From: Mustelus asterias
Taxonomy: Eukaryota
DNA: 64,000 bases
Assembly: GCF_964213995.1 (NCBI RefSeq)
Contig: NC_135808.1
Span: 3,658,001 to 3,722,000, forward strand
Direction: 5' to 3'
The notes beneath the pieces were generated by a model. The model worked only from the letters and a program-made list of their open reading frames with translations, made no database searches and was not told where the DNA came from. Shown in pieces: positions 1,064 through 41,399 of the stretch (positions are counted from its first letter, which is position 1; the number at the start of each line of letters is the position of its first letter). The position numbers were made by a program, and so were the translations under genes.

Positions 1064-3058
1064 TCAGTAGGGGTGGTGATCGGGAGGAGGGGGTGGTGAT
1101 CGGGGAGAGAGGGGGTGGTGATCGGGGAGAGAGGGGGTGGTGATCGGGGAGAGAGGGGGTGGTGATCGGGGAGAGATGGGGTGGTGATCGGGGGGAGAGA
1201 GAGAGGGGGTGGTGATCGGGGGGAGAGGGGGGTGGTGATCGGGGGGAGAGGGGGTGGTGATCGGGGGGGGAAGGAGGGGGTGGTGATCGGGGGGGAAGGA
1301 GGGGGTGGTGATCGGGGGGAGAGGCGGTGGTGATCGGGGAGAGAGGGGGTGGTGATCGGGGAGAGAAGGGGTGGTGACCAGGGAGAGAGGGGGTGGTGAC
1401 CGGGGAGAGAGGGGGTAGTGACCGGGGAGAGAGGGGGTGGTGACCGGGGAGAGAGGGGGTGGTGACCGGGGAGAGAGGAGGTGGTGACCGGGGAGAGAGG
1501 GGGTGGTGACCGGTGGGAGAGGGGGTGGTGACCGGGGAGAGAGGGGGTGGTGACCGGGGAGAGAGGGGTTGGTGACCGGGGAGAGAGGGGTTGGTGACGG
1601 GGGGAGAGGGGATGGTGATCGGGGGGAGAGGGGGTGGTGATCGGGGGGAGAGGGGGTGGTGATCGGGTAGGGAGGGGGTGGTGATCGGGGGGAGAGGGGT
1701 TGGTGATCGGGGGGAGAGGGGATGGTGATCGGGGGGAGAGGGGGTGGTGATCGGGGGGAGAGGGGGTGGTGATCGGGTAGGGAGGGGATGGTGATCGGGG
1801 GGAGAGGGGGTGGTGATCGGGTAGGGAGGGGACGGTGATCGGGGGGAGAGGGGAAGGTGATCGGGGGGAGAGGGGGTGGTGATCGGGGGGGAAGGAGGGG
1901 ATGGTGATCGGGGGAGAAGGAGGGGGTGGTGATCGGGGGGAGAGGGGATGGTGATCGGGGGGAGAGGGGATGGTGATCGGGGGGAGAGGGGGTGGTGATC
2001 GGGGGGAGAGGGGGTGGTGATCGGGTAGGGAGGGGATGGTGATCGGGGGGAGAGGGGGTGGTGATCGGGTAGGGAGGGGATGGTGATCGGGGGGAGAGGG
2101 GAAGGTGATCGGGGGGAGAGGGGGTGGTGATCGGGGGGGAAGGAGGGGGTGGTGATCGGGGGAGAAGGAGGGGGTGGTGATCGGGGGGAGAGGCGGTGGT
2201 GACCAGGGAGAAAGGGGGTGGTGATCGGGGAGAGAGGGGTTGGTGACCAGGGAGAGATGGGGTGGTGACCGGGGAGAGAGGGGGTAGTGACCGGGGAGAG
2301 AGGGGGTGGTGACCGGGGAGAGAGGGGGTGGTGACCGGGGAGAGAGGAGGTGGTGATCGGTGGGAGAGGGGGTGGTGACCGGGGGGAGAGGGGTTGGTGA
2401 CCGGGGGGAGAGGGGTTGGTGACCGGGGGGAGAGGGGGTGGTGACCGGGGGAGAGGAGGTGGTGACCGGGGGGAGAGGGGGTGGTGACCGGGGGGAGAGG
2501 GGGTGGTGACCGCGGTGAGAGGGGGGGTGGTGATTGGGGAGAGGGGGGGTGGTGATCGGGGGGAGAGGGGATGGTGATCGGGGGGAGAGGGGGTGGTGAT
2601 CGGGGGGAGAGGGGGTGGTGATCGGGGGGAGAGGGGATGGTGATCGGGGGGAGAGGGAGTGGTGATCGGGGGGAGAGGGGGTGGTGATCGGGTAGGGAGG
2701 GGATGGTGATCGGGGGGAGAGTGGGTGGTGATCGGGGGGAGAGGGGATGGTGATCGGGGGGAGAGGGGATGGTGATCGGGGGAGAGGGGATGGTGATCGG
2801 GGGGAGAGGGGGTGGTGATCGGGTAGGGAGGGGGTGGTGATCGGGGGGAGAGGGGATGGTGATCGGGGGGAGAGGGGATGGTGATCGGGGGGGAGAGGGG
2901 GTGGTGATCGGGTAGGGAGGGTACGGTGATCGGGGGGAGAGGGGATGGTGATCGGGGGGAGAGGGGATGGTGATCGGGGGGAGAGTGGGTGGTGATCGGG
3001 GGGAGAGGGGATGGTGATCGGGGGGAGAGGGGGTGGTGATCGGGTCGGGGGGATGGTG
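1064..3058 (+). repeat. G-rich minisatellite, ~19-23 bp unit (GGGGGTGGTGATCGGGGGGAGA and GACC variants), in the intron upstream of the MHC alpha1 exon
   Basis: About 2 kb of directly visible tandem units; ends ~70 bp before the alpha1 splice acceptor. Confidence 0.97.
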
Positions 3059-3130: not shown

Positions 3131-3391
3131 ACACTAACACACTCATGGTGATATGCACTGTTGCCTCTGGGATCGAAGATTTTCCTGAGATCACAAGCAC
3201 TGCAGAGGTTAATGGTGTCCTCATAGGATATAGTGACAGTAATATCCGTCGCTGCATTCGCAGGCAGAGGTTCATGGCTGAATATATTGACTCTGAATTC
3301 TGGGACCATATCACAGAACTGGTGAACTCGCACACAAACATGGTAAAGGAGAATCTGAATACAGTGCTGAAAATCACAAACCAGACATCCG
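3131..3391 (+). CDS. MHC class I-like heavy chain, alpha1 exon
   Basis: tcttttccag acceptor and G|gtaag donor, 261 nt, phase 1-1. Translates DTNTLMVICTVASGIEDFPE...GYSDS...EFWDHIT...NQTSG, with the N86 glycosylation sequon typical of class I alpha1. Confidence 0.93.
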
Positions 3392-3438: not shown

Positions 3439-4307
3439 TGAACTCAATCCATCTCCCAGCACTGACCCCTGGGACACTGAACTCAATCCATCTCCCAGCA
3501 CTGACCCCTGGGACACTGAACTCAATCCATCTCCCAGCACTGACCCCTGGGACACTAAACTCAATCCATCTCCCAGCACTGACCCCTGGGACACTGAACT
3601 CAATCCATCTCCCAACACTGACCCCTGGGACACTGAACTCAGTCCCCCAGCACTGACCCCTGGGACACTGAATTCAGTCCCCCAGCACTGACCCCTGGGA
3701 CACTGAACTTAGTCCCCCAGCACTGACCCCTGGGACACTGAACTCAATCCATCTCCCAGCACTGACCCCTGGGACACTGAACTCAGTCCCCCAGCACTGA
3801 CCCCTGGGACACTGAACTCAGTCCCCCAGCACTGACCCCTGGGACACTGAACTCAGTTCCCCAGCACTGACCCCTGGGACACTGAACTCAGTCCATCTCA
3901 GTCCAGGGGCAGCACGGTGGCACAGTGGTTAGAACTGCTGCCTCACAGCGCCAGGGACCTGGGTTGGATTCCCAGCTTGGCTCCACTGTCTGTGTGGAAT
4001 TTGCACGTTCTCCCCATGTCTGCGTGGGTTTCCTCGGGTGCTCCGGTTTCCTCCCACAGTCTGAAAGACATGCTGGTTCGGTGTATTGGCCATGCTAAAT
4101 TCTCCTTCAGTGTACCCGAACAGGCGCCGAAGTGTGGCGACTAGGGGAATTTCACAGTAACTTCATTGCAGTGTTAATGTAAGCCTTACTTGTGACTCAT
4201 CAATTAATGTCAGTATCTCCCAGCACTAACCCCTGGGACACTGAACTCAGTCCCTCAGCACTCACCCCTGGGACACTGAACTTAGTCCATCTCCCAGCAC
4301 TGACCCC
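3439..4307 (+). repeat. 39/35-bp minisatellite (TGAACTCAATCCATCTCCCAGCACTGACCCCTGGGACAC) in the alpha1-alpha2 intron, interrupted by a SINE
   Basis: About 12 tandem units at 3439-3900 and ~3 degenerate units at 4210-4307. Confidence 0.95.
3906..4205 (+). mobile_element. tRNA-derived V-SINE (HE1-like head, alternative 3' tail)
   Basis: GGCAGCACGGTGGCACAGTGGTTAG A-box head; V-domain TCTGCGTGGGTTTCCTC...GGTGCTCCGGTTTCCTCCCACAGTC; tail ...CTTACTTGTGACT. Confidence 0.85.
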
Positions 4308-4448: not shown

Positions 4449-4724
4449 GAATTCACATTTTTCAATGGATTTGGTCTGTTGAGGTCACTGAAGACGGCTC
4501 CATTAAGAGATCGATGCGGTTTGGATTTGATGGAAAGGACTATATTAGTTTAGAGCCAAACAGAATGAGATGGGTCGCGTCCAATCACTTCGCAGTGAAG
4601 ACTAAAGAGAAATGGGACTCTGATCAACGCTGGAATAATTACTGGGAAAAATATCTGCAGGAAGTATTTGTTCAACATTTAAATAAATATTTGGAAGCTG
4701 GAAAAGAATATTTTGGACGGAAAG
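4449..4724 (+). CDS. MHC class I-like heavy chain, alpha2 exon
   Basis: ttctgacag acceptor, G|gtattg donor, 276 nt (canonical length). Motifs GIHIFQW, FGFDGKDYISL, TKEKWD, YLQEVFVQHLNKYLEAGKE; no cysteines. Confidence 0.95.
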
Positions 4725-4841: not shown

Positions 4842-5120
4842 TTCAGCCTGAAGTCTTCATCTCCAGAAGTGAGCCCAATGGTCAGTACAATCCGCTCACT
4901 CTCTCCTGCCTGGTTACTGGCTTTTATCCTGCAGACATCGAGGTGACCTGGCTAAGGAGTGGAGAAGTAATGTCTGAGATACTATCCTCAGGGGTTCGAC
5001 CGAACCACAATGGGACCCATCAGATCCAGAAAGAGATTGAAATAAATGCTGGGGATGAGGATCAATACTGCTGTCAAATTGAACACAGCAGCCTGGCAGA
5101 GCCCAAGCTCCATAAGTGGG
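4842..5120 (+). CDS. MHC class I-like heavy chain, alpha3 (C1-set Ig) exon
   Basis: cccattacag acceptor, G|gtgag donor, 279 nt. LSCLVTGFYPADIEVTW...RPNHNGTHQ...YCCQIEHSSL is a C1-set/MHC signature. Confidence 0.97.
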
Positions 5121-5493: not shown

Positions 5494-5604
5494 AAATCCT
5501 GGGAAACAGTGGGGGACGCTCCCATCTTGGTATTATAATCGGATCAGTGATCCCAGCACTGGTTGTTATATTCGGAATAATCATCTGGAAAAGACAACGG
5601 ACAG
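5494..5604 (+). CDS. MHC class I-like heavy chain, connecting peptide/transmembrane exon
   Basis: tgtttcag acceptor, G|gtaag donor, 111 nt. EILGNSGGRSHLGIIIGSVIPALVVIFGIIIWKRQRT: hydrophobic span followed by a basic stop-transfer sequence. Confidence 0.92.
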
Positions 5605-5999: not shown

Positions 6000-6032
6000 A
6001 TTCACCAAGTGGGGCGTACACAACAGATCCCA
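6000..6032 (+). CDS. MHC class I-like heavy chain, cytoplasmic exon
   Basis: Branch-like ctgac, pyrimidine tract, ctgcag acceptor and A|gtaagt donor; 33 nt, DSPSGAYTTDP. The final coding exon is uncertain (an acceptor at 6111 would add KF-stop). Confidence 0.8.
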
Positions 6033-6849
6033 GTAAGTGACTGAGGCACGGATTGTTGGGAATGAAATACATTCACGTTTTGTGCACTTTTCTCACTTTC
6101 TGATTGCTCAGAGTTTTAAATATCTTTAAATGTTTGCGGATTTTGATCAAGACTTTTTGGACTCAGTATAAAAGACTCTGTGATACATCCAGTAATGGAG
6201 AAGACAATCAGGATGTTGAAAACATTTTTCTGGTGCTGGGCAGTTTTGCACTTCACTTTATAAGTTGTGTGAGATGAAGGAAAGTGAAAGTTGATCTGAT
6301 GAATTCCCACACAGTCACGGAGTGTTCACCCGGCTCCTTTGTACAGGACTCTGTGCTGTACAGGCTGTTCCCAGGAACACACATTGAGATAAACACCGTA
6401 TCTTGCTGGAGGACCATCAACTCAGTGGAAATCAGCCTGAAACTCACAGCTGTTCCAGGGCAAAGGGTTTTTTTAGACTGTCGCATTGCAAGGTCCAGGA
6501 ATACTGGTGAGGGACACAACACAGCTTGGGGCAGCCACTGGAGACACTCCATGGGGAAAGACCTCTGACTAAGACCCTCCCATCATAGCTACAGGGAGTG
6601 GCTGAAAAATATGTCAAATCTCTGTGTGAATATTGCTGAGATAATATTGCCAATCTAAATTGTAACTCTGAGTGTAGTGAGACTCTACAGAATGTCAGAA
6701 TTTATATTGATAGAAACTGGCCCATTTTGATCCTTCTGTAATGTCATATTTGATGTGTTCTACAATGTATTTTTGTTTATTTTAATGTTATAACACATTT
6801 ATGGAGGAAAGTCTACAATCAGTGAAGCATCAATAACTGGTTTGTAATC

Positions 6850-6855
6850 AATAAA
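6850..6855 (+). terminator. Probable polyadenylation signal of the class I gene
   Basis: AATAAA at the end of an AT-rich unique stretch, followed by a GT/T-rich tract (gtgtttgacttgtc). Confidence 0.55.
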
Positions 6856-8170
6856 TAATTGTCAGTGTTTGACTTGTCTGAATTCTTCTTCACTGATTTC
6901 ACAGGAAAGGTTTAATTCATTCACTCAGCAGCTTGTGACGATTGGAATGGGCAGTTGTTGAGGTTCAATTCAATGTGAACTGGCTGAGTTCATACCAAAT
7001 GTCAACATCATTCACTGTTTTCCATCAGCATTGATTCACTTGTTAATAGAAAAGGAGATGTCAGTGCGAGAGACAGAGGAGAGGAAGACCTGTCCTAACT
7101 TAAGTGAATCAAACTTCAGCACATTTCCCAGTGAGCTGGAGGTGAAGGCTCACCAGCTCCTCAGTAATGAGAAGTGTAGGGAACCTCAAAGTGAGTGTGT
7201 TGGTGCCAAGCTGTTCCAGTACAGCTACAACACAGGCATCTCCCGACAATGTATAAAATTGCCCAGGTATATGCTGTACACTAGAAACAGGACAAATTTA
7301 ACCCTGCCTATTACAACCCAATCGGTCTACTGTCAATCATCAGCAAAGTGATGAAGGGGTTATCAACAGTGCCGTCAAGCGGCACTTACTCAGCAATAAT
7401 TTGCTCAGTGACACCCAGTTTGTGTTCCGCCAGGGTCACTCAGCTCCTGACCTCATTACAGCTTTGGTTCAAACATGGACAAAAGAGCTTAATTCCAGAG
7501 GTGAGATGAGAGTGATAGTCCTTGATATCAAGACCGCATTTGACCGAGTGTGGCATCAAGGAGCCCTCGTAAAACCGGAATCAATGGGTATCAGGGGGAA
7601 AACTCTCCACTGGTTGGAATCATAACTAGCACAAAAAATGGTGGTTGTGTGATTGGAGGTCAATCATCTCAGTCTCTGGGCATCAATGCAGGAATTCCTC
7701 AGGGTCGTGTCCCAGTCCCAACCATCTTCAGCTGCTTCATCAGTGACCTGCCTTCTAGGATAATGTCAGAAGTGGCGATGTTCGCTGATGATTGTGCAAT
7801 GTTCAGCTGCATTATTACGACTCAGATATTGAAGCAGTCCATGTCCAAATGCAGCAAGACCTGGACAATGTCCAGGCTTGGACTAACAAGTGGCAAGTAA
7901 TATTTGTGTCACACAAGTGTAAGGCAACAATCACCTCCAACAAGAGAGAATCTAACCATCGCCCCTTGACATTCAATGGCATTGCCATGACTGAATCCCC
8001 CATTAGCAACATCCTGGGGCCTACCATTGACCAGAAACAAAACTGGATTAGCCATATAAATACTGTAGTTACAAGAGCAGGTCAGAGGTTAGGAATCCTG
8101 CAGTGAGTAACCACCTCCTGACTCCCCAAAACCTGTCCACCATCTACATGGCACAAGTCACGAGTGTGAG

Positions 8171-15503: not shown

Positions 15504-15554
15504 ATGTTGCTGATCCTTTTCTCCATCTCCCTTGTTTTCCCTGGGTCTCTCCCG
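15504..15554 (+). pseudogene. Orphan signal-peptide (leader) exon, probably of a second class I paralog
   Basis: ATG-initiated MLLILFSISLVFPGSLP followed by a consensus G|gtaagt donor; no matching alpha exons found downstream in the window. Confidence 0.55.
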
Positions 15555-29199: not shown

Positions 29200-32100
29200 C
29201 CCCAGTCGTCGTACTTTGCAAATAATTTTAAACTCTTTTCAATACAGAAGAAAAGCATTAACTGGAAGCATATTGCTAAAAATTATCAGAATGGTTTCCA
29301 TATTTGAAAAGGTTACCTGCAAACCATCACGTAAAGTCTGTACAAACCAGCTGATGATCTTGAAGCACAGAGCTCATCATTAAGGATGAAATGAATGAAT
29401 TGTTTCACTTCATCTTTCAAAACATTTGCGCCTATGTCCTGGTAGAATTCACCTAATTTCTTACTGCAGTGGCTTTTAGCATTCTCATCCAAACTTCTGT
29501 CTAAAAACACATACAATAAATCAACAGTTTTCTTTAGAGATTCACTTCTACTGATTGCAATCATTGTGTCACAAATTACATCTACAGTTTCAACGATGAT
29601 CTTCTCTTTTCCATTTAAAGTAATTTCATTGTCTATAGTTTCATCAAAAAAATAATTTCCTGCTTCTTGTACACTTCTCGTCAGCAGAGGGACCTGTGTT
29701 TTCATTAATGTCAGTGTACCTGTTTCAAACGAGCTATAGTCATTTCAAACTTCCATTACAAAACCTTTAACCGAGGCTAACAATTGTGCAGCATTCAATG
29801 AAGTTATATCAACATTTTGCAGTGATTTGCTGACAACATTAATTTTCTGAAGTAAATGGCTCCAAACAACAGTAAAAAAACAACAGTATCATACTTTTCA
29901 AACTTCTCTGCTAAGGATTTTACTTCAGCTTTCACGCATGTTGGGTGATATTCTGCCAAAAAGGTTCTAAGTGTTGAATTCACGGGAAAACTGGAGTAAC
30001 TCACGCTGGTTTTTTCAGTGGGAGTTCACACTAGAATCTCCCACATTCTGTGCAATGCAGAGGCCACCAGTATGATTTTCATTAAATTTCAGGGATCGGA
30101 GCCTATTCATGCTGGAGAGGCTGAAACCAGCAGGCTTCTATGCATGTGTAGTGGCCCCAAACTGTCAGCCTCCTCATTTGCTGGCCAGCTCAATCGCTGG
30201 CCAGCCCAGGAGCCTCTGCAGTGCTGCCCCCAGCCCCCTCACGGCCCGATCGCAGCCCCCCCCAAACTTTCCCAGACCAGCCTCGACCTCCTCATCCTAT
30301 ATGGCCCCCATCTCCAGCACCCCCCCCAGCAGTGATGAACCCCCCCATACCCCAGCCCGCCCCGATCGCTGGCCTCCCCCCTGCCCTCATCCATCCCTCT
30401 GCAGAATAAAAAGACTCAACACTCATACAGCATGGCAGCGGGACCCCCACGGAATTCCCCTAAGCCCCATACCCGCTAAGCCCTGCCCCTATAGGCCCCC
30501 ACCCCCTTGGCACTGCCCGATGCCCGGTAGGCAGTACCAAGGTGCCCCCTGGGCATGTGCACTTTGCCCCTTGGGCAGTGCCGGGGTGCCCATGCCCAGC
30601 GGGTACCAACCCCTCCACCTCCTGAACTGCCGGTGGACCCCGATTGCCCCCCCCTTCACTCCAGTGGGGTCAAGCCACTAGTTCCCCAAAAGCGGGGAGC
30701 TAGTCTGAATCACGCTGGAGTGAAATACTCCTGGTGGGGTGGAAGATGGTAGCGGGCCTGGGGAATTCAGTCCCGGGCCCCCTAAGCACATTAAAATAAC
30801 ATTAAAATAAGATGTGAAGTACTGACCTGGTGTTCCTGCTGGTTTTCAGTACGAATCAGACAGTGCCGGAAATCCGGCACTGGGAGACACGCACGCGCGG
30901 GAACACATGCATGAAATCTGCACATGCCCGAACACGAGATTCTCCCATCACGCTGCACTGGAAAATTAGCACAGCGGGGTGGGAGAATCACCCCAGTTTT
31001 TTCTCAATTTGATGCAGGTATGTTTCACAAGGTTTCCTTTATATCAACACGATTCCATTTCAAAGCCAAAACACTATCTGCATGAGTGAGCCACCAGTTA
31101 TCACAATTTCTTTTGACTGTGAAATACTTTCCTGAAAAAAAAGCATAAAAATTTTGAACAAAGTCAAGAAAGTACAGCTTCCTCACAGGATTCAGCTGCA
31201 GTGTTGCAGATTAAATTTTGAGTGACTGGAACATGGGATAAATAATGCACAGGGACTTGCATTGTTCAGTGTTGCTTGTAGACCTGACTATTTTCCTGCC
31301 ATATTTGTGGCATTATCAAAGCTCTGCCCATGACAATTTTTGATGCCCAAACTAAAATTTGCAATGATTTTCAAAAGAATTGTTTTCAGACATTCAGAAG
31401 TTTGGGATTGTTGCTGGACAAAACTAATAAATCACTATACAACCTCACCAGCACTGGTCACATATCTGAAAATTAGTGTTAATTGGTCCACATGACTCAC
31501 ACCTGGTGTTGAAGCAACTATTATGGAATACTATTTGGCATCTTTTACTTAATTCGTGAATTGGTTTCTGAGCCGCTCTGCCATGAGAGTGATGAAGTCA
31601 TTGCAGGTTTTGTGCAGTAAAAGTTTGGTCTTCCCTGAGCCACAATACTGATGAGTTTTCAAATACTCTTTGAGAAGCTCTGATATTTCACTGACACATT
31701 CAAGGCAGGCTAAAACATATCTCACTAAGTTGGCAATGATGACTCATCATGTCCTCATGGAGGTAGTCCCAAAGAAGAGAGCAGTTTGACTATGGCAACA
31801 ACATGTCTCAGCACTTTCGTCCAATAAGAACATTCTTTTCCAAACTGAGCCAATATCGCAGTATCAATAATTTACATATTTGAACGAACGCACACGTAGC
31901 TTTAATATGAACTTTGGAAGTTTCATGATCAACTCTACATCTTCCAACATTTCTCCAATTAGTGAACCCATCGATGAATGTTTGTTTCCCTTTACTAAGG
32001 TCAGGGAATAATTTGCAAACATAACAATAGACTGCCTTAGAGATTTCTGAAAAAAATCCAACCAATTTCTAATTTCTGTTATCCCATTTCTCTTCACCCT

Positions 32101-36808: not shown

Positions 36809-37260
36809 GTCATCGGATAGTGTTGTTTCATATTGACTTGATTTTAATTAATATGAATTTTCTGAACGAGCAGGCATTTTTTACCCTCCTCAGCCCTGGG
36901 GGCCAAGTTGCCCCTCCCCTCTGTGGTGAACCATCGTTGGTTACCACTGTGGGGTTATTCCAATGTTACTGTTGGGTTAGGGTGTTGCCACTGTGGGGGT
37001 TGTTATAATGTTGTTGGGTTAGGGTGTTTACCTGTGGTAGATGTTGTTATGGCACATCTCGGTCGGGCCCCGCCTCCTGGAGAGAGGTATAAGACCCTCT
37101 GCTCAGGCGGGACCCCTCCAGTCTGAACTGGTGTACTCGTGTTAGTTAGTTCCATTGTTTGCTAATAAAAGCCTTCAATAGCTGAAGCCTTGTACCTCGT
37201 GCTTGATTGTCGCGCATCAATTTTATTAGCAAACATAAAACTCTCGACAGTAAAGGGAGT

Positions 37261-38457
37261 ATGGAACAAATGCTAAAACCAGAGCGTCTGACGTTGGACC
37301 CACGTGCGGTCGGTGCCACTAACACCTTCGACCACTGGTTGAAGTGTTTCGAGGACTACCTGGCAGCCTCTGCAGCTGTTACTACGGACGACGACAAACT
37401 CCAGGTCCTCCACGCGAGGGTAAGCGACACGGTCTACCTTGCGATTCGTGCGGCCACCACTTACCCGAGGGCCATCGAGCTCTTGAAGAAACGATACACG
37501 AGACCACCCAACGAGATCCACGCTTGTTACCTCCTCGCTACACGACGTCGGCAGTCGGGCGAAACCATGGAGGACTACGCCAATGAGCTCTTGCAGCTTG
37601 CCAGGGGCTGTGACTGCAAAGATGTGTCGGCTGAGCAATATATGTACGACCTCGCCCGAGATGCGTTCGTAGCAGGGGTAGGGTCCTCGTACATCCGGCT
37701 TAAGCTATTAGAGAAAGGGAACCTCAACTTGACCCAAGCGATGGAGATGGCTGAGATGCTGGAGGCAGCGTCGAAAAGCTTGGCTCTGTACCCCGAAGAC
37801 CACGCGGAGACAATGTGGCAGGAGCAAGCACAAATCCCTCCTCGCCCCACGGGCTCGCGCTCCCATATCGATCCGACGACGGCGGCAGCTCCAGGCGGCC
37901 AGCGATGCTATTTTTGCGGCGGAGCCAAACATCCACGGCAACAGTGTCCAGCAAAAACGGCGATCTGCAGTCAGTGCGGTAAAAAGGGGCACTATGCTAA
38001 AGTTTGCAGGTCGAAGCCCAAGAACGGCAGTGCAGCCTATGACCCTCCAGAGCGGAGACAATCTCCTTCGACGGCGCAGTACCCACGAGGTCCGACCACG
38101 TGCGAATCCAGGACGGCGCCATCGTGGCTGACGGAGGAGGAGGAAGACCACCAGGAGTCGCTACGCTTGGCGCCCTCACCCACGTGCGATTCATGGGGGC
38201 GGCCATCATGGTCGACGACGACCAGGAGCGACCAGCAGGGGTCCTCAGTATCAACCTCGGCTGCATGCAGTGACGCCCAGGGGCCAACGGTGGCGTCGAT
38301 CTCTCTGGACCAGACGAAGCATCACAGACTTGACTGTTCCATGATGAACATCAAGGTAAATGGTCGTACTGTGTATTGTCTGTTTGACAGTGGGAGCACC
38401 GAGAGTTTTATTCACCCTGATCACGGATCAACGATCCGTGGCGTTTATGTTCAGTAA
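37261..38457 (+). CDS. Gag (two CCHC knuckles) fused to a truncated aspartic protease
   Basis: CYFCGGAKHPRQQCPAKTAICSQCGKKGHYAKVC; protease motif LFDSGSTESFI; the frame is lost after the deletion junction near 38420. Confidence 0.88.
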   Translation: MEQMLKPERLTLDPRAVGATNTFDHWLKCFEDYLAASAAVTTDDDKLQVLHARVSDTVYLAIRAATTYPRAIELLKKRYTRPPNEIHACYLLATRRRQSGETMEDYANELLQLARGCDCKDVSAEQYMYDLARDAFVAGVGSSYIRLKLLEKGNLNLTQAMEMAEMLEAASKSLALYPEDHAETMWQEQAQIPPRPTGSRSHIDPTTAAAPGGQRCYFCGGAKHPRQQCPAKTAICSQCGKKGHYAKVCRSKPKNGSAAYDPPERRQSPSTAQYPRGPTTCESRTAPSWLTEEEEDHQESLRLAPSPTCDSWGRPSWSTTTRSDQQGSSVSTSAACSDAQGPTVASISLDQTKHHRLDCSMMNIKVNGRTVYCLFDSGSTESFIHPDHGSTIRGVYVQ

Positions 38458-39809
38458 TACGCAGAGGGGCAAGACCAAGAATGATAAGATCTTGCGGTGG
38501 AGAATTGAGCTCTCCACCTATAATTACGATATTATGTATCGTCCAGGGAAGCTCAATGAGCCCTCGGATGCCCTCTCGCGCGGAACATGCGCCATCATGC
38601 AGGAGGACCGCTTGAAGGCCCTCCACAATGACCTGTGCCATCCTGGAGTCACCCGACTCTACCACTTCGTAAAAGCCCGCAACCTGCCCTACTCGGTGGA
38701 GGATGTCAGGTCAGTAACAAGAAGCTGTCGGATTTGCGCGGAATGCAAACCGCACTTTTATCGACCGGACCGGGCACAATTGGTCAAGGCCACTCGCCCC
38801 TTCGAGAGGCTGAGTGTGGATTTTAAGGGCCCCCTTCCCTCAACGGACCGGAATGTCTATTTTCTCAATATAATAGATGAATACTCCCGGTTCCCGTTTG
38901 TTGTCCCCTGTGCGGACACGTCGACTGCCACAGTGATTAAGGCATTCAGTGATCTTTTTACCCTGTTCGGGTACCCCTGCTACATACATAGCGACAGGGG
39001 CTCGTCGTTCATAAGTAACGACTTGAGGCAATTCCTGCTCTCATACGGGATTGCCTCTAGTAGAACCACGAGCTACAACCCTAGGGGTAACGGACAGGTG
39101 GAGAGGGAGAATGCTACAGTCTGGAAGGCTGTCCTACTGGTGCTGAAATCCAGGGGCCTTCCAGTCTCCCGTTGGCAGGAGGTCCTTCCAAATGCGCTTC
39201 ATTCCATTCGCTCCCTCGTGGGGAGTAGCAACCAATGCTACTCCCCACGAGAGGATGTTCTCATTCCCTCGGAAGTCGTCCTCGGGGATCTCCTTACCAG
39301 CCTGGTTGATGTACCCAGGACCTGTCCTTCGGCGGCGACATGTGAGGGCCCGCAGGTCCGACCCCTTGGTCGAACCGGTCCAACTCCTCCACGCCAACCC
39401 TCAGTATGCCTATGTGGCATATCCTGATGGGCGAGAGGACACAGTCTCCATTCGAGACCTGGCGCCCGCAGGGGACGTAGCAACTCCTGTCACTCCTATA
39501 CCCCCCGTCACGAACCCCCTTTCACTTCTTTCTTCCCCAGACGTGGCGCGGTCAGCACCGGGACCAGTGCATAACAGTTATACTCCCATGTACAGCTTGC
39601 CTGAGACTCGGAGATCGGCGCCACCACAGAAGGTTCCAGGATCCCCTGCACCATCGCCTCACCAGGGTCAACCGGCCCGGGAGTCCTCGAGGGGACAGCC
39701 GGACGCTGTTTTGGAGAGAATGCCACCGCAAGCACCTGCTCCGGTGTCGCAACCGGTGTTGAGGAGATCACAGCGACGGTGCGGTCCTCCAGACCGTCTG
39801 GACTTGTGA
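38411..39809 (+). pseudogene. RNase H C-terminus plus integrase, with a frameshift near 39220
   Basis: FTLITDQRS...LRWRIELSTYNYDIMYRPGKLNEPSDALSR; HHCC (HNDLCHPG...CRIC); DDE core SVDFKGP/HSDRG/VEREN. Confidence 0.9.
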
Positions 39810-41399
39810 ATTTTGTATATATGTGACCTGTTTCCGCACCCCGCCGGCCTTTGTTTTTAAAGGAGGGGTGAATGTGGTGAACCATCGTTGGTTACCACCG
39901 TGGGGTTATTCCAATGTTACTGTTGGGTTAGGGTGTTGCCACTGTGGGGGTTGTTATAATGTTGTTGGGTTAGGGTGTTTACCTGTGGTAGATGTTGTTA
40001 TGGCACATCCCGGTCGGGCCCTGCCTCCTGGGGAGAGGTATAAGACCCTCTGCTCAGGCGGGACCCCTCCAGTCTGAATTGGTGTACTCGTGTTAGTTAG
40101 TTCCATTGTTTGCTAATAAAAGCCTTCAATAGCTGAAGCCTTGTACCTCGTGCTTGATTGTCGCGCATCACCCTCATCGATAACTGGTGCCTCGCACCTC
40201 ACCTTGACAACCTTGCCTCACTGCTGGCTCAGGCTGCCTGGCTATGGCCTCGCCTGCCCAGGCCTCCTCAGCCCTGCCAGGGGGTTGAGTCAGTGCTGCA
40301 GCTGCTCATAGGAGTGTCAGTTCCTCTGGCACCCCCCGGAGATAGACTGCGAACTGATAGCACTCTGTGTACTGCTGTTAGAGTTTGTAAATGAAGGGAT
40401 TTTGGTGAAAAGATTTCTGCTTCTAACGACTTATTACAGTATGAGAGAGATTGTATGTGTTGTGTTTGGTGATAGAGGTTGTGTGTGAGAGAGAAACTGC
40501 AGAGGATTTTATGGAACCCACAAGAGCAGGGAATGTGACATGGGAGGTGACGGAAATAGGCTGGATGTAAGATTTTAATTTCCTGATGGCTGATGTAGAG
40601 TCAGCGATGGGTTTTCAGCATGCCAAGCCTTATGCCAACTGTGGCAGGTTCATACGTGCAATTGATTTGCAGAACATGGGTAATCATTAGCGTGGAACAT
40701 GTTATAATAAAGTCCTACCCTCAAGATAAAGTTAGCGATGCAAGAGAATCTTATGGCACCTAATTCACAGTTGTTAAAAGTGATGTACACTTTATGCAGT
40801 TGTGACTAAGATAAGCAAGTTTCCACGTTGAACTCTGTGACTGAAGGTGGATGTTGGAAGTGTTCGGGTGCAGGGAAGTGAGGTGGAGGGAAGGAAAAAT
40901 GTATAGAGTTTGGTGATCAGATGGTGGAGGTGAGGTGGAGGGAAGAGAGGGTGGAAAGGGGGTGGTGTTTGGGTGCAAGGAGTTGGAAAGAAGGGCCTAG
41001 TTTCCTGGGTGTGGTGATCATCCTGTAAGAGGGTGTCAGGTGATGGTAGCAGGCAGGGGTGGTAAGATGGATGGAGTTAGATATAGCCCTTGGTATGAAA
41101 GGGATCAAAGGATACGGAGGGTGGAAAAGCAGGAACAGGTTACTGAGTTGGTTGATCAGTCATGATCAGAATGAATGGTGGAATAGGCTCAAAGGGCCGA
41201 ATAGCCTACTACTACTCCTATTTTCTGTGTTAATCTTGATTAAAATGGGAGGAAGATAATTTTGGTTGGGTGGAATTCAGGCTGCAGAAAATTGGTCGAT
41301 TAAGTGGACTAACAAACAAGTGAAATGAATGAGAACCATGAATGCACATGATGTCTCATGTACATCAGCACTTTTCACACAGTGTAATTACAGCAAGAA

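Follow-up and report, generated by a model that had tools for sequence, protein, structure and literature searches.

The disulfide of the MHC class I alpha2 domain is kept by almost all class I-like proteins, and a locus that encodes an alpha2 domain without it raises the question of whether the loss marks a decaying gene, a single remodelled molecule, or a wider lineage. Such a locus lies in the 64-kb stretch C8:3,658,001-3,722,000, the whole of which is called the window here and supplies the position numbers. A first-pass annotation of the window proposed that one alpha2 exon had lost both cysteines through a paired hydrophobic replacement, that its groove was filled with aromatic residues, and that it belonged to a functional, remodelled nonclassical molecule whose ligand would be non-peptide, small, or absent.

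Structure of the gene

Alignment to solved class I chains bore out the replacement of Cys101 by Val and of Cys164 by Phe in the window alpha2 domain, and the claimed integrity of the exon's frame and splice sites holds as well. In a numbering check, the protein carries V7, F59, I84, W97, W99, V101, Y123, T143, K146, W147, W156, Y159, F164, H167, and Y171, and all positions previously numbered were right. The features of the locus are as follows.

C8:3,649,997-3,650,048 (L031:1997-2048): leader exon, ~8 kb upstream of the window and outside it
3131..3391, + strand: alpha1 exon with AG/GT ends, in frame, encoding V7, C9, C45, F59, I84, and the N86 glycan sequon
4449..4724, + strand: alpha2 exon bounded by AG/GT, its frame open from 4451, lacking Gly100, Cys101, Cys164, and Trp167
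4478..4480, + strand: codon 101, Val replacing Cys (Val, Ile, or Ala across the family)
4631..4645, + strand: Trp152 to Trp156 in the alpha2 helix, a lineage-diagnostic tryptophan pair (W152 in 85/88 rows, W156 in 87/88)
4667..4669, + strand: codon 164, Phe replacing Cys (hypervariable position in the family)
4842..5120, + strand: alpha3 exon that retains the Ig disulfide; sequence homogenised across paralogues
5494..5604, + strand: connecting peptide and transmembrane (TM) exon
6000..6040, + strand: short cytoplasmic tail up to the stop codon, followed by the 3' UTR, which is covered by relatives' contigs
6850..6855, + strand: likely poly(A) signal, the sole AATAAA within 6041-7300
15504..15554, + strand: orphan frameshifted leader exon of the neighbouring family gene, apparently brought along in the duplicated segment

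Joined at canonical splice sites, the six coding exons encode 339 residues with no stop, frameshift, or splice defect, and this open reading frame is identical to RefSeq model P0003 (source name Mustelus asterias). A missing leader exon, which had been named as the mark of a decaying pseudogene, was ruled out by the leader found 8 kb upstream of the window. RefSeq places three models with two different first exons at the locus; the alternative first exon of model P0088 (L031, ~7.1 kb upstream of the window) encodes a hydrophilic N-terminus unlike a signal peptide. No further alpha1, alpha2, or alpha3 exons were found in the 64-kb window, including the sequence after the orphan leader. The introns contain minisatellites with a G-rich 22-bp unit (~89 copies) and a 35-bp unit (~12 copies) at 1070-3044 and 3439-3899, which are common to sister genes of the cluster described below. 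Elsewhere, the window holds a retrotransposon-like element at 36922-40170, with two 298-bp terminal repeats that are 98.3% alike and long internal frames at 37207-38454 and 38360-39424, and open frames on the minus strand at 29316-29744 and 31811-32068 that we take to resemble pieces of a hAT/ZMYM1-type transposase.

Distribution of the cysteine loss and identity of the lineage

The genome has 17 alpha2 exons at 62-100% identity, consisting of the window copy, 14 copies in a cluster at C8:32.31-32.80 Mb, and two single copies, at 33.55 and 40.15 Mb. Cys101 is present in 0/17 of these, and position 164 is Leu in six, Phe in five, Gly in three, Trp in two, and Cys in one. Both cysteines are kept in 12/12 other class I alpha2 exons checked in the same genome (12 of 54 more distant matches), which argues that the loss is not due to chance. 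The pair is found in 0/89 aligned alpha2 rows drawn from 87 database proteins: position 101 is Val in 79, Ile in 2, and Ala in 2 (n = 83), and position 164 holds 11 different residues in 87 rows (26 L, 23 F, 10 Y, 9 C, and seven others). Gly100 occurs in 0/82 rows and Trp167 in 0/87, and Gly100, Cys101, and Cys164 are kept in 8/8 of the distant shark class I matches with an alpha2 domain that were returned by a profile search. Partial, fused, and some redundant sequences were left out of a second alignment, which comprises 57 of the 87 proteins at full length from 13 shark species that presumably span six orders.

All named close matches among the 120 of 123 listed by a word-based search are sharks, a weak indication of absence elsewhere, and the further named close matches added by the profile search are sharks only. 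An alpha1-alpha2 tree with six other class I genes of the genome unites the 60 family rows in a single clade (100/100), set off by a long branch from the UAA-, UBA-, and UDA-like genes; within it, four cluster copies are the sister group of the window gene. These comparisons indicate that the cysteine loss is a trait of the whole shark gene family and not of the window gene; gene-specific decay and sequencing error are ruled out by the family-wide occurrence of the loss. The idea of a paired V/F remodelling special to this gene is not supported: the loss is an old trait of the lineage, and because Val101 is fixed while position 164 is hypervariable, the two replacements are not a paired compensation.

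Positions 36 and 45 are neighbours in the alpha1 hairpin. A compensating new disulfide between them was considered and rejected, given that Cys45 occurs in 21/57 proteins and its partner Cys36 in only 1/57 and in 3/15 genes of the genome, with Ser36 in the window copy. The alpha1 exons of three sister genes (L036, L037, and L038) do carry Cys36 and Cys45, a possible new disulfide; the window copy instead has a private Cys9. Outside the tandem cluster, a sublineage at C8:33.55 Mb (L046/L064) is strongly conserved, with very short branches and with Arg167 and Arg171, and is found in Mustelus, Carcharodon, Scyliorhinus, Stegostoma, Chiloscyllium, and Heterodontus. Among other loci, L065 (C8:33.62 Mb) has a family alpha1 exon with no alpha2 among the genome matches, L047:2459-3107 is a family gene with an insertion within the alpha3 exon, and L006, L016, and L017 have stops in alpha2.

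Almeida et al. are said to have described UEA in 2021 as a nonclassical class I lineage of sharks. It is reportedly found in sharks and absent from rays and chimaeras; it is also said to have lost the conserved peptide-terminus residues, to have a hydrophobic groove, and to be expressed weakly and in restricted tissues. UCA proper is, we assume, a dogfish-only lineage with UEA as its relative in other sharks. UEA is located, in several copies, beside a single UDA gene that adjoins the adaptive MHC (PMC10751288), and the two families said to have expanded in sharks are UBA and UEA (PMC12562908). The present family cluster starts 30 kb from the UDA gene L027 (32.28 Mb), with class II alpha at 34.3-34.5 Mb, and its 14 copies are multicopy, MHC-linked, and UDA-adjacent in the same manner. 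The window gene also agrees with the traits ascribed to UEA in its lost peptide-terminus residues (V7, F59, I84, and H167) and its groove hydropathy of 0.89, as does the shark-only distribution among the 120 of 123 matches listed, weak as that absence is.

Among the alpha2 queries in supplement file 10 of PMC10751288, 23/26 keep both cysteines; the pair is missing from three, namely dogfish UCA, a nurse shark sequence that bears the label UCA, and a ray sequence given as UHA, and the label UEA stands on no sequence of that supplement. Counted by eye, the window alpha2 shares 61/91 identical residues with the nurse shark query and 33/91 with dogfish UCA. Because we assume UCA proper to be dogfish-only, we read the nurse shark query as UEA. 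Other assignments were rejected: classical class Ia (UAA), since the gene lacks Tyr7, Tyr59, Arg84, Trp167, and the Cys101-Cys164 bridge; UDA, which is a separate gene (L027) with 30% alpha2 identity and both cysteines kept; and dogfish UCA proper, for which the by-eye identity is too low. Dogfish UCA is likely a sister lineage that shares the cysteine loss and Trp152/Trp156, judging from the aligned residues.

We infer the name UEA for the family and regard its identity with that published lineage as very likely. The window gene is then likely a new member of a known lineage and not a new kind of molecule. The suggested novelty largely fails, as both cysteines are already absent from UCA-labelled query sequences published for cartilaginous fish. 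No statement on the alpha2 cysteine loss was found in the literature searched, which is not proof that it is unpublished, since papers on UEA or UDA or their supplements may state it; a paper on the teleost H lineage likewise yielded no statement on the 101-164 bridge.

Selection, homogenisation, and the displaced copy

The window copy sits alone, 29 Mb from the family cluster, between CSNK2B (0.11-0.14 Mb) and class II, which corresponds to the class III side by white shark gene order. This position does not contradict the reported retention of shark class Ib genes in the MHC, and a location outside the MHC is ruled out by the same flanks and gene order. Similarity to cluster loci extends from ~9 kb upstream of the window to ~16,400, which points to a segmental duplication that included the leader of the next gene; the copy would then be a duplicate moved from the tandem cluster to the class III end of the MHC. 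A mis-scaffolded duplicate haplotype is unlikely because the introns and UTR are 2.5-8% off the closest copies. Elsewhere on C8, at 21.6-24.8 Mb, UBA-like class I alpha2 exons form a large cluster of several dozen, part of them in repeated blocks that are nearly identical.

Rates of replacement and silent change were estimated on 12 of the 17 copies, after exclusion of three interrupted by stops, one whose alpha3 is disrupted, and one near-duplicate. Among these paralogues, dN/dS is 0.47 (0.37-0.60) in alpha1, 0.46 (0.31-0.65) in alpha2, and 0.63 (0.36-1.24; 11 genes) in alpha3, and the family is under purifying selection. Within alpha1, dN/dS is 0.53 at groove positions and 0.44 at the others, and positive selection on the groove was not seen with pairwise counts. 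The mean silent difference is 0.057 in alpha3 versus 0.444 in alpha1, and the nearest neighbor belongs to the same species for 40/54 alpha3 domains versus 14/55 alpha1 domains, a contrast indicative of concerted evolution or of shuffled exons. Family alpha3 exons (cluster L035-L050 and window 4842-5120) are homogenised within species, and alpha1 exons retain old cross-species sublineages. Within alpha2, dS over residues 92-157 is 0.26 versus 0.57, and homogenisation may be the cause of part of the alpha2 invariance.

Contigs of related genes, from four runs, four studies, and four organisms (their status as RNA is a guess), join exons at the predicted GT..AG sites for the alpha2-alpha3 (4/4), alpha3-TM (3/4), and TM-tail (4/4) junctions. 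Because these contigs differ much from the window gene, they show that the family is spliced and not that the window locus is. With the leader found, the family under purifying selection, and relatives spliced, the earlier reading of an intact nonclassical shark class I gene is upheld.

The window copy's own constraint is a separate matter, on which the evidence is neutral, with expression unproven. Against its four sisters, the copy has a dN/dS of 0.69-1.29 and a dN of ~0.07, with 17 replacement and 6 silent changes derived in the window copy (polarity uncertain). It is conceivable, if fairly unlikely, that the lineage is functional while the displaced copy has only recently become a pseudogene and still has an unbroken frame. 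The copy's isolation beside a broken neighbouring leader would fit such a history, as would coding divergence from the sisters similar to its intron and UTR divergence from the closest copies (0.025-0.080), the private unpaired cysteines at position 9 and in alpha3, and the broken state of several cluster copies. Six exons with no defect, the retention of all invariant family residues, and the three RefSeq models with two first exons speak against it; RefSeq models with alternative first exons usually rest on RNA. Too few substitutions were counted to tell 0.74 apart from 1 or from 0.5.

The groove, its possible ligand, and known class I systems

The groove of the window protein has a mean Kyte-Doolittle hydropathy over 40 positions of 0.89, versus -0.53 to 0.20 in five other class I genes, and is the most hydrophobic among 15 family genes (range, -0.28 to 0.89). 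The description of the groove as filled with aromatics is not distinctive, as it has 13 aromatics over the 40 positions and five other class I genes of the genome have 10-15; it differs from the grooves of other shark class I molecules in higher hydrophobicity and not in aromatic content. Similarly, the tryptophans noted at 97, 99, and 156 are present but not all specific to the gene: Trp97 and Trp156 are family traits, and only Trp99 is rare (5/82), being derived in the window copy from an Arg codon.

PMC8236899 relates Gly100 to the raised 101-164 bridge and to Trp167, which the bridge lifts so that it blocks the groove, and regards the alpha2 disulfide as stabilising the part of the groove domain that lacks Ig-domain support. 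On that account, the family has lost a whole connected N-terminus-pocket module; Tyr7 is also lost in the family, and Tyr59 and Tyr159 often are. At the other end, Met114, Trp133, Trp147, and Trp156 are each present in 57/57 full-length proteins and Trp152 in 56/57, with T143, K146, and W147 in 69/89, 79/89, and 88/89 rows. Mean entropy is 2.21 bits at 10 N-end alpha2 positions versus 0.35 at 11 C-end positions, all chosen after the data had been seen. The N86 sequon, Gln96, Asp119, Gly120, Asp122, and the alpha3 cysteines are invariant in the family, which fits pairing with beta2-microglobulin as established for class I. The AlphaFold model has a mean pLDDT of 72.4 and values of 85-94 over residues 21-190 (the groove domains), confidence that may reflect memory of the fold; the alpha2 helix is unbroken across position 164, and the model's fold is matched best by chicken BF2, MR1, and shark UAA (TM-score, 0.79 to 6LUP). 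A sequence search found no solved structure of any family member.

The best explanation, which we consider probable, is that the gene is intact and belongs to a nonclassical multigene class I lineage confined to sharks, whose ancestor lost the alpha2 disulfide, with the class I fold kept and a hydrophobic, non-canonical ligand likely. Loss of the disulfide in the common ancestor of the lineage (likely UEA) would have left a heavy chain that folds with beta2-microglobulin and reaches the surface, with hydrophobic packing of Val101 under the alpha2 helix in place of the bridge. With the N-terminus pocket gone, the fixed tryptophan-lined end and the paralogue-specific residues of the alpha1 and alpha2 helices would give each copy its own ligand or receptor surface, carried on a shared, homogenised alpha3. 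The product would most likely be bound to beta2-microglobulin at the cell surface and hold a non-canonical ligand in a hydrophobic groove that has no disulfide. For the ligand step itself, a hydrophobic, non-canonical ligand instead of an end-anchored peptide, our confidence falls slightly short of an even balance; the kept Thr143, Lys146, Trp147, and Tyr123 would fit binding of a peptide C-terminus and weigh against it.

Those residues lead to a different reading, which we think improbable, in which the lineage still binds peptides, holding the C-terminus at the Thr143/Lys146/Trp147 end while the peptide runs out through an N-terminal end opened by loss of the Gly100-Cys101-Cys164-Trp167 block and of Tyr7/Tyr59. 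HLA-F is a precedent for an open N-end. Conservation of the three C-end residues and the entropy difference (at positions picked post hoc) agree with such binding, as does the lifting of Trp167 by the bridge described in PMC8236899. However, hypervariability extends to position 84, where the peptide carboxylate is bound; UBA- and UDA-like genes too keep Thr143/Trp147, possibly for structural reasons; the invariant Trp152, Trp156, and Met114 would crowd the C-end; and part of the invariance is homogenisation, as the dS contrast over alpha2 92-157 indicates.

Alternatively, the groove may have collapsed and be empty, with the protein serving as a ligand-free, MIC-like surface signal for NK-type or innate T-cell receptors and its variable helix residues facing the receptor. 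The large side chains (mean, 162 cubic angstrom versus 153-158) would suit a filled groove, the known geometry of class I has many variable positions (158, 162, 166, and 170 among them) pointing upward from the helix, and replacement changes are not in excess at the alpha1 groove. Floor positions 9, 24, 99, and 116 nevertheless differ between paralogues, the volume difference is small, and domain lengths are canonical, and we hold this reading to be doubtful.

A bolder reading, to which we give little credence, is that one ancestor of UEA and UCA dismantled the N-terminus module (Gly100, Cys101-Cys164, Trp167, and Tyr7) and fixed a C-end tryptophan cage. The groove would then be free of the disulfide, rigid at its C-end, and open and hypervariable at its N-end, holding C-anchored, N-overhanging peptides or lipopeptides, with the paralogues sharing a homogenised alpha3. 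If true, this would amount to a natural, long-lived way to fold class I without the alpha2 disulfide and to a reversal toward a class II-like open groove.

The window gene itself matters little, as one of ~17 copies in a lineage described in 2021. Of wider interest is that six shark orders maintain a multigene family without the alpha2 disulfide despite the stabilising role ascribed to it in PMC8236899. The coupled loss of Gly100, Cys101, and Trp167 together with the fixed tryptophans yields a concrete, testable prediction about structure in a family for which the sequence search found none solved.

Compared with UEA as published, the family is likewise multicopy, MHC-linked by UDA and class II, found here in sharks only, and marked by lost peptide-end residues and a hydrophobic groove; the window copy differs in its class III-end location within the MHC, 29 Mb away from the cluster, and in its private Trp99 and Cys9. 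Dogfish UCA (Squalus acanthias AF515705) shares Val101, the absence of Cys164, Gly100, and Trp167, and the presence of Trp152 and Trp156, but lacks Trp147 and Lys146 and reaches only the 33/91 alpha2 identity counted by eye. Shark classical UAA (PDB 6LUP), UBA, and UDA have the same exon plan, predicted fold, beta2-microglobulin contact positions, and alpha3 disulfide, whereas they keep Cys101, Cys164, Tyr7, Tyr159, and Trp167 and show ~30-40% alpha2 identity. MR1 and the CD1-like shark UFA and UGA are functional analogues in their use of the class I fold for non-peptide ligands, and MR1 is among the top fold matches; that match is generic and no evidence of a shared ligand, and the supplement sequences of CD1, UFA, and UGA keep the alpha2 cysteine pair. 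HLA-H exists in a Phe164 form. Loss of Cys164 in this pseudogene is linked to lost antigen presentation (PMC5049754). HLA-H, however, is a recently inactivated locus, whereas the loss in the shark family is fixed in six orders under purifying selection.
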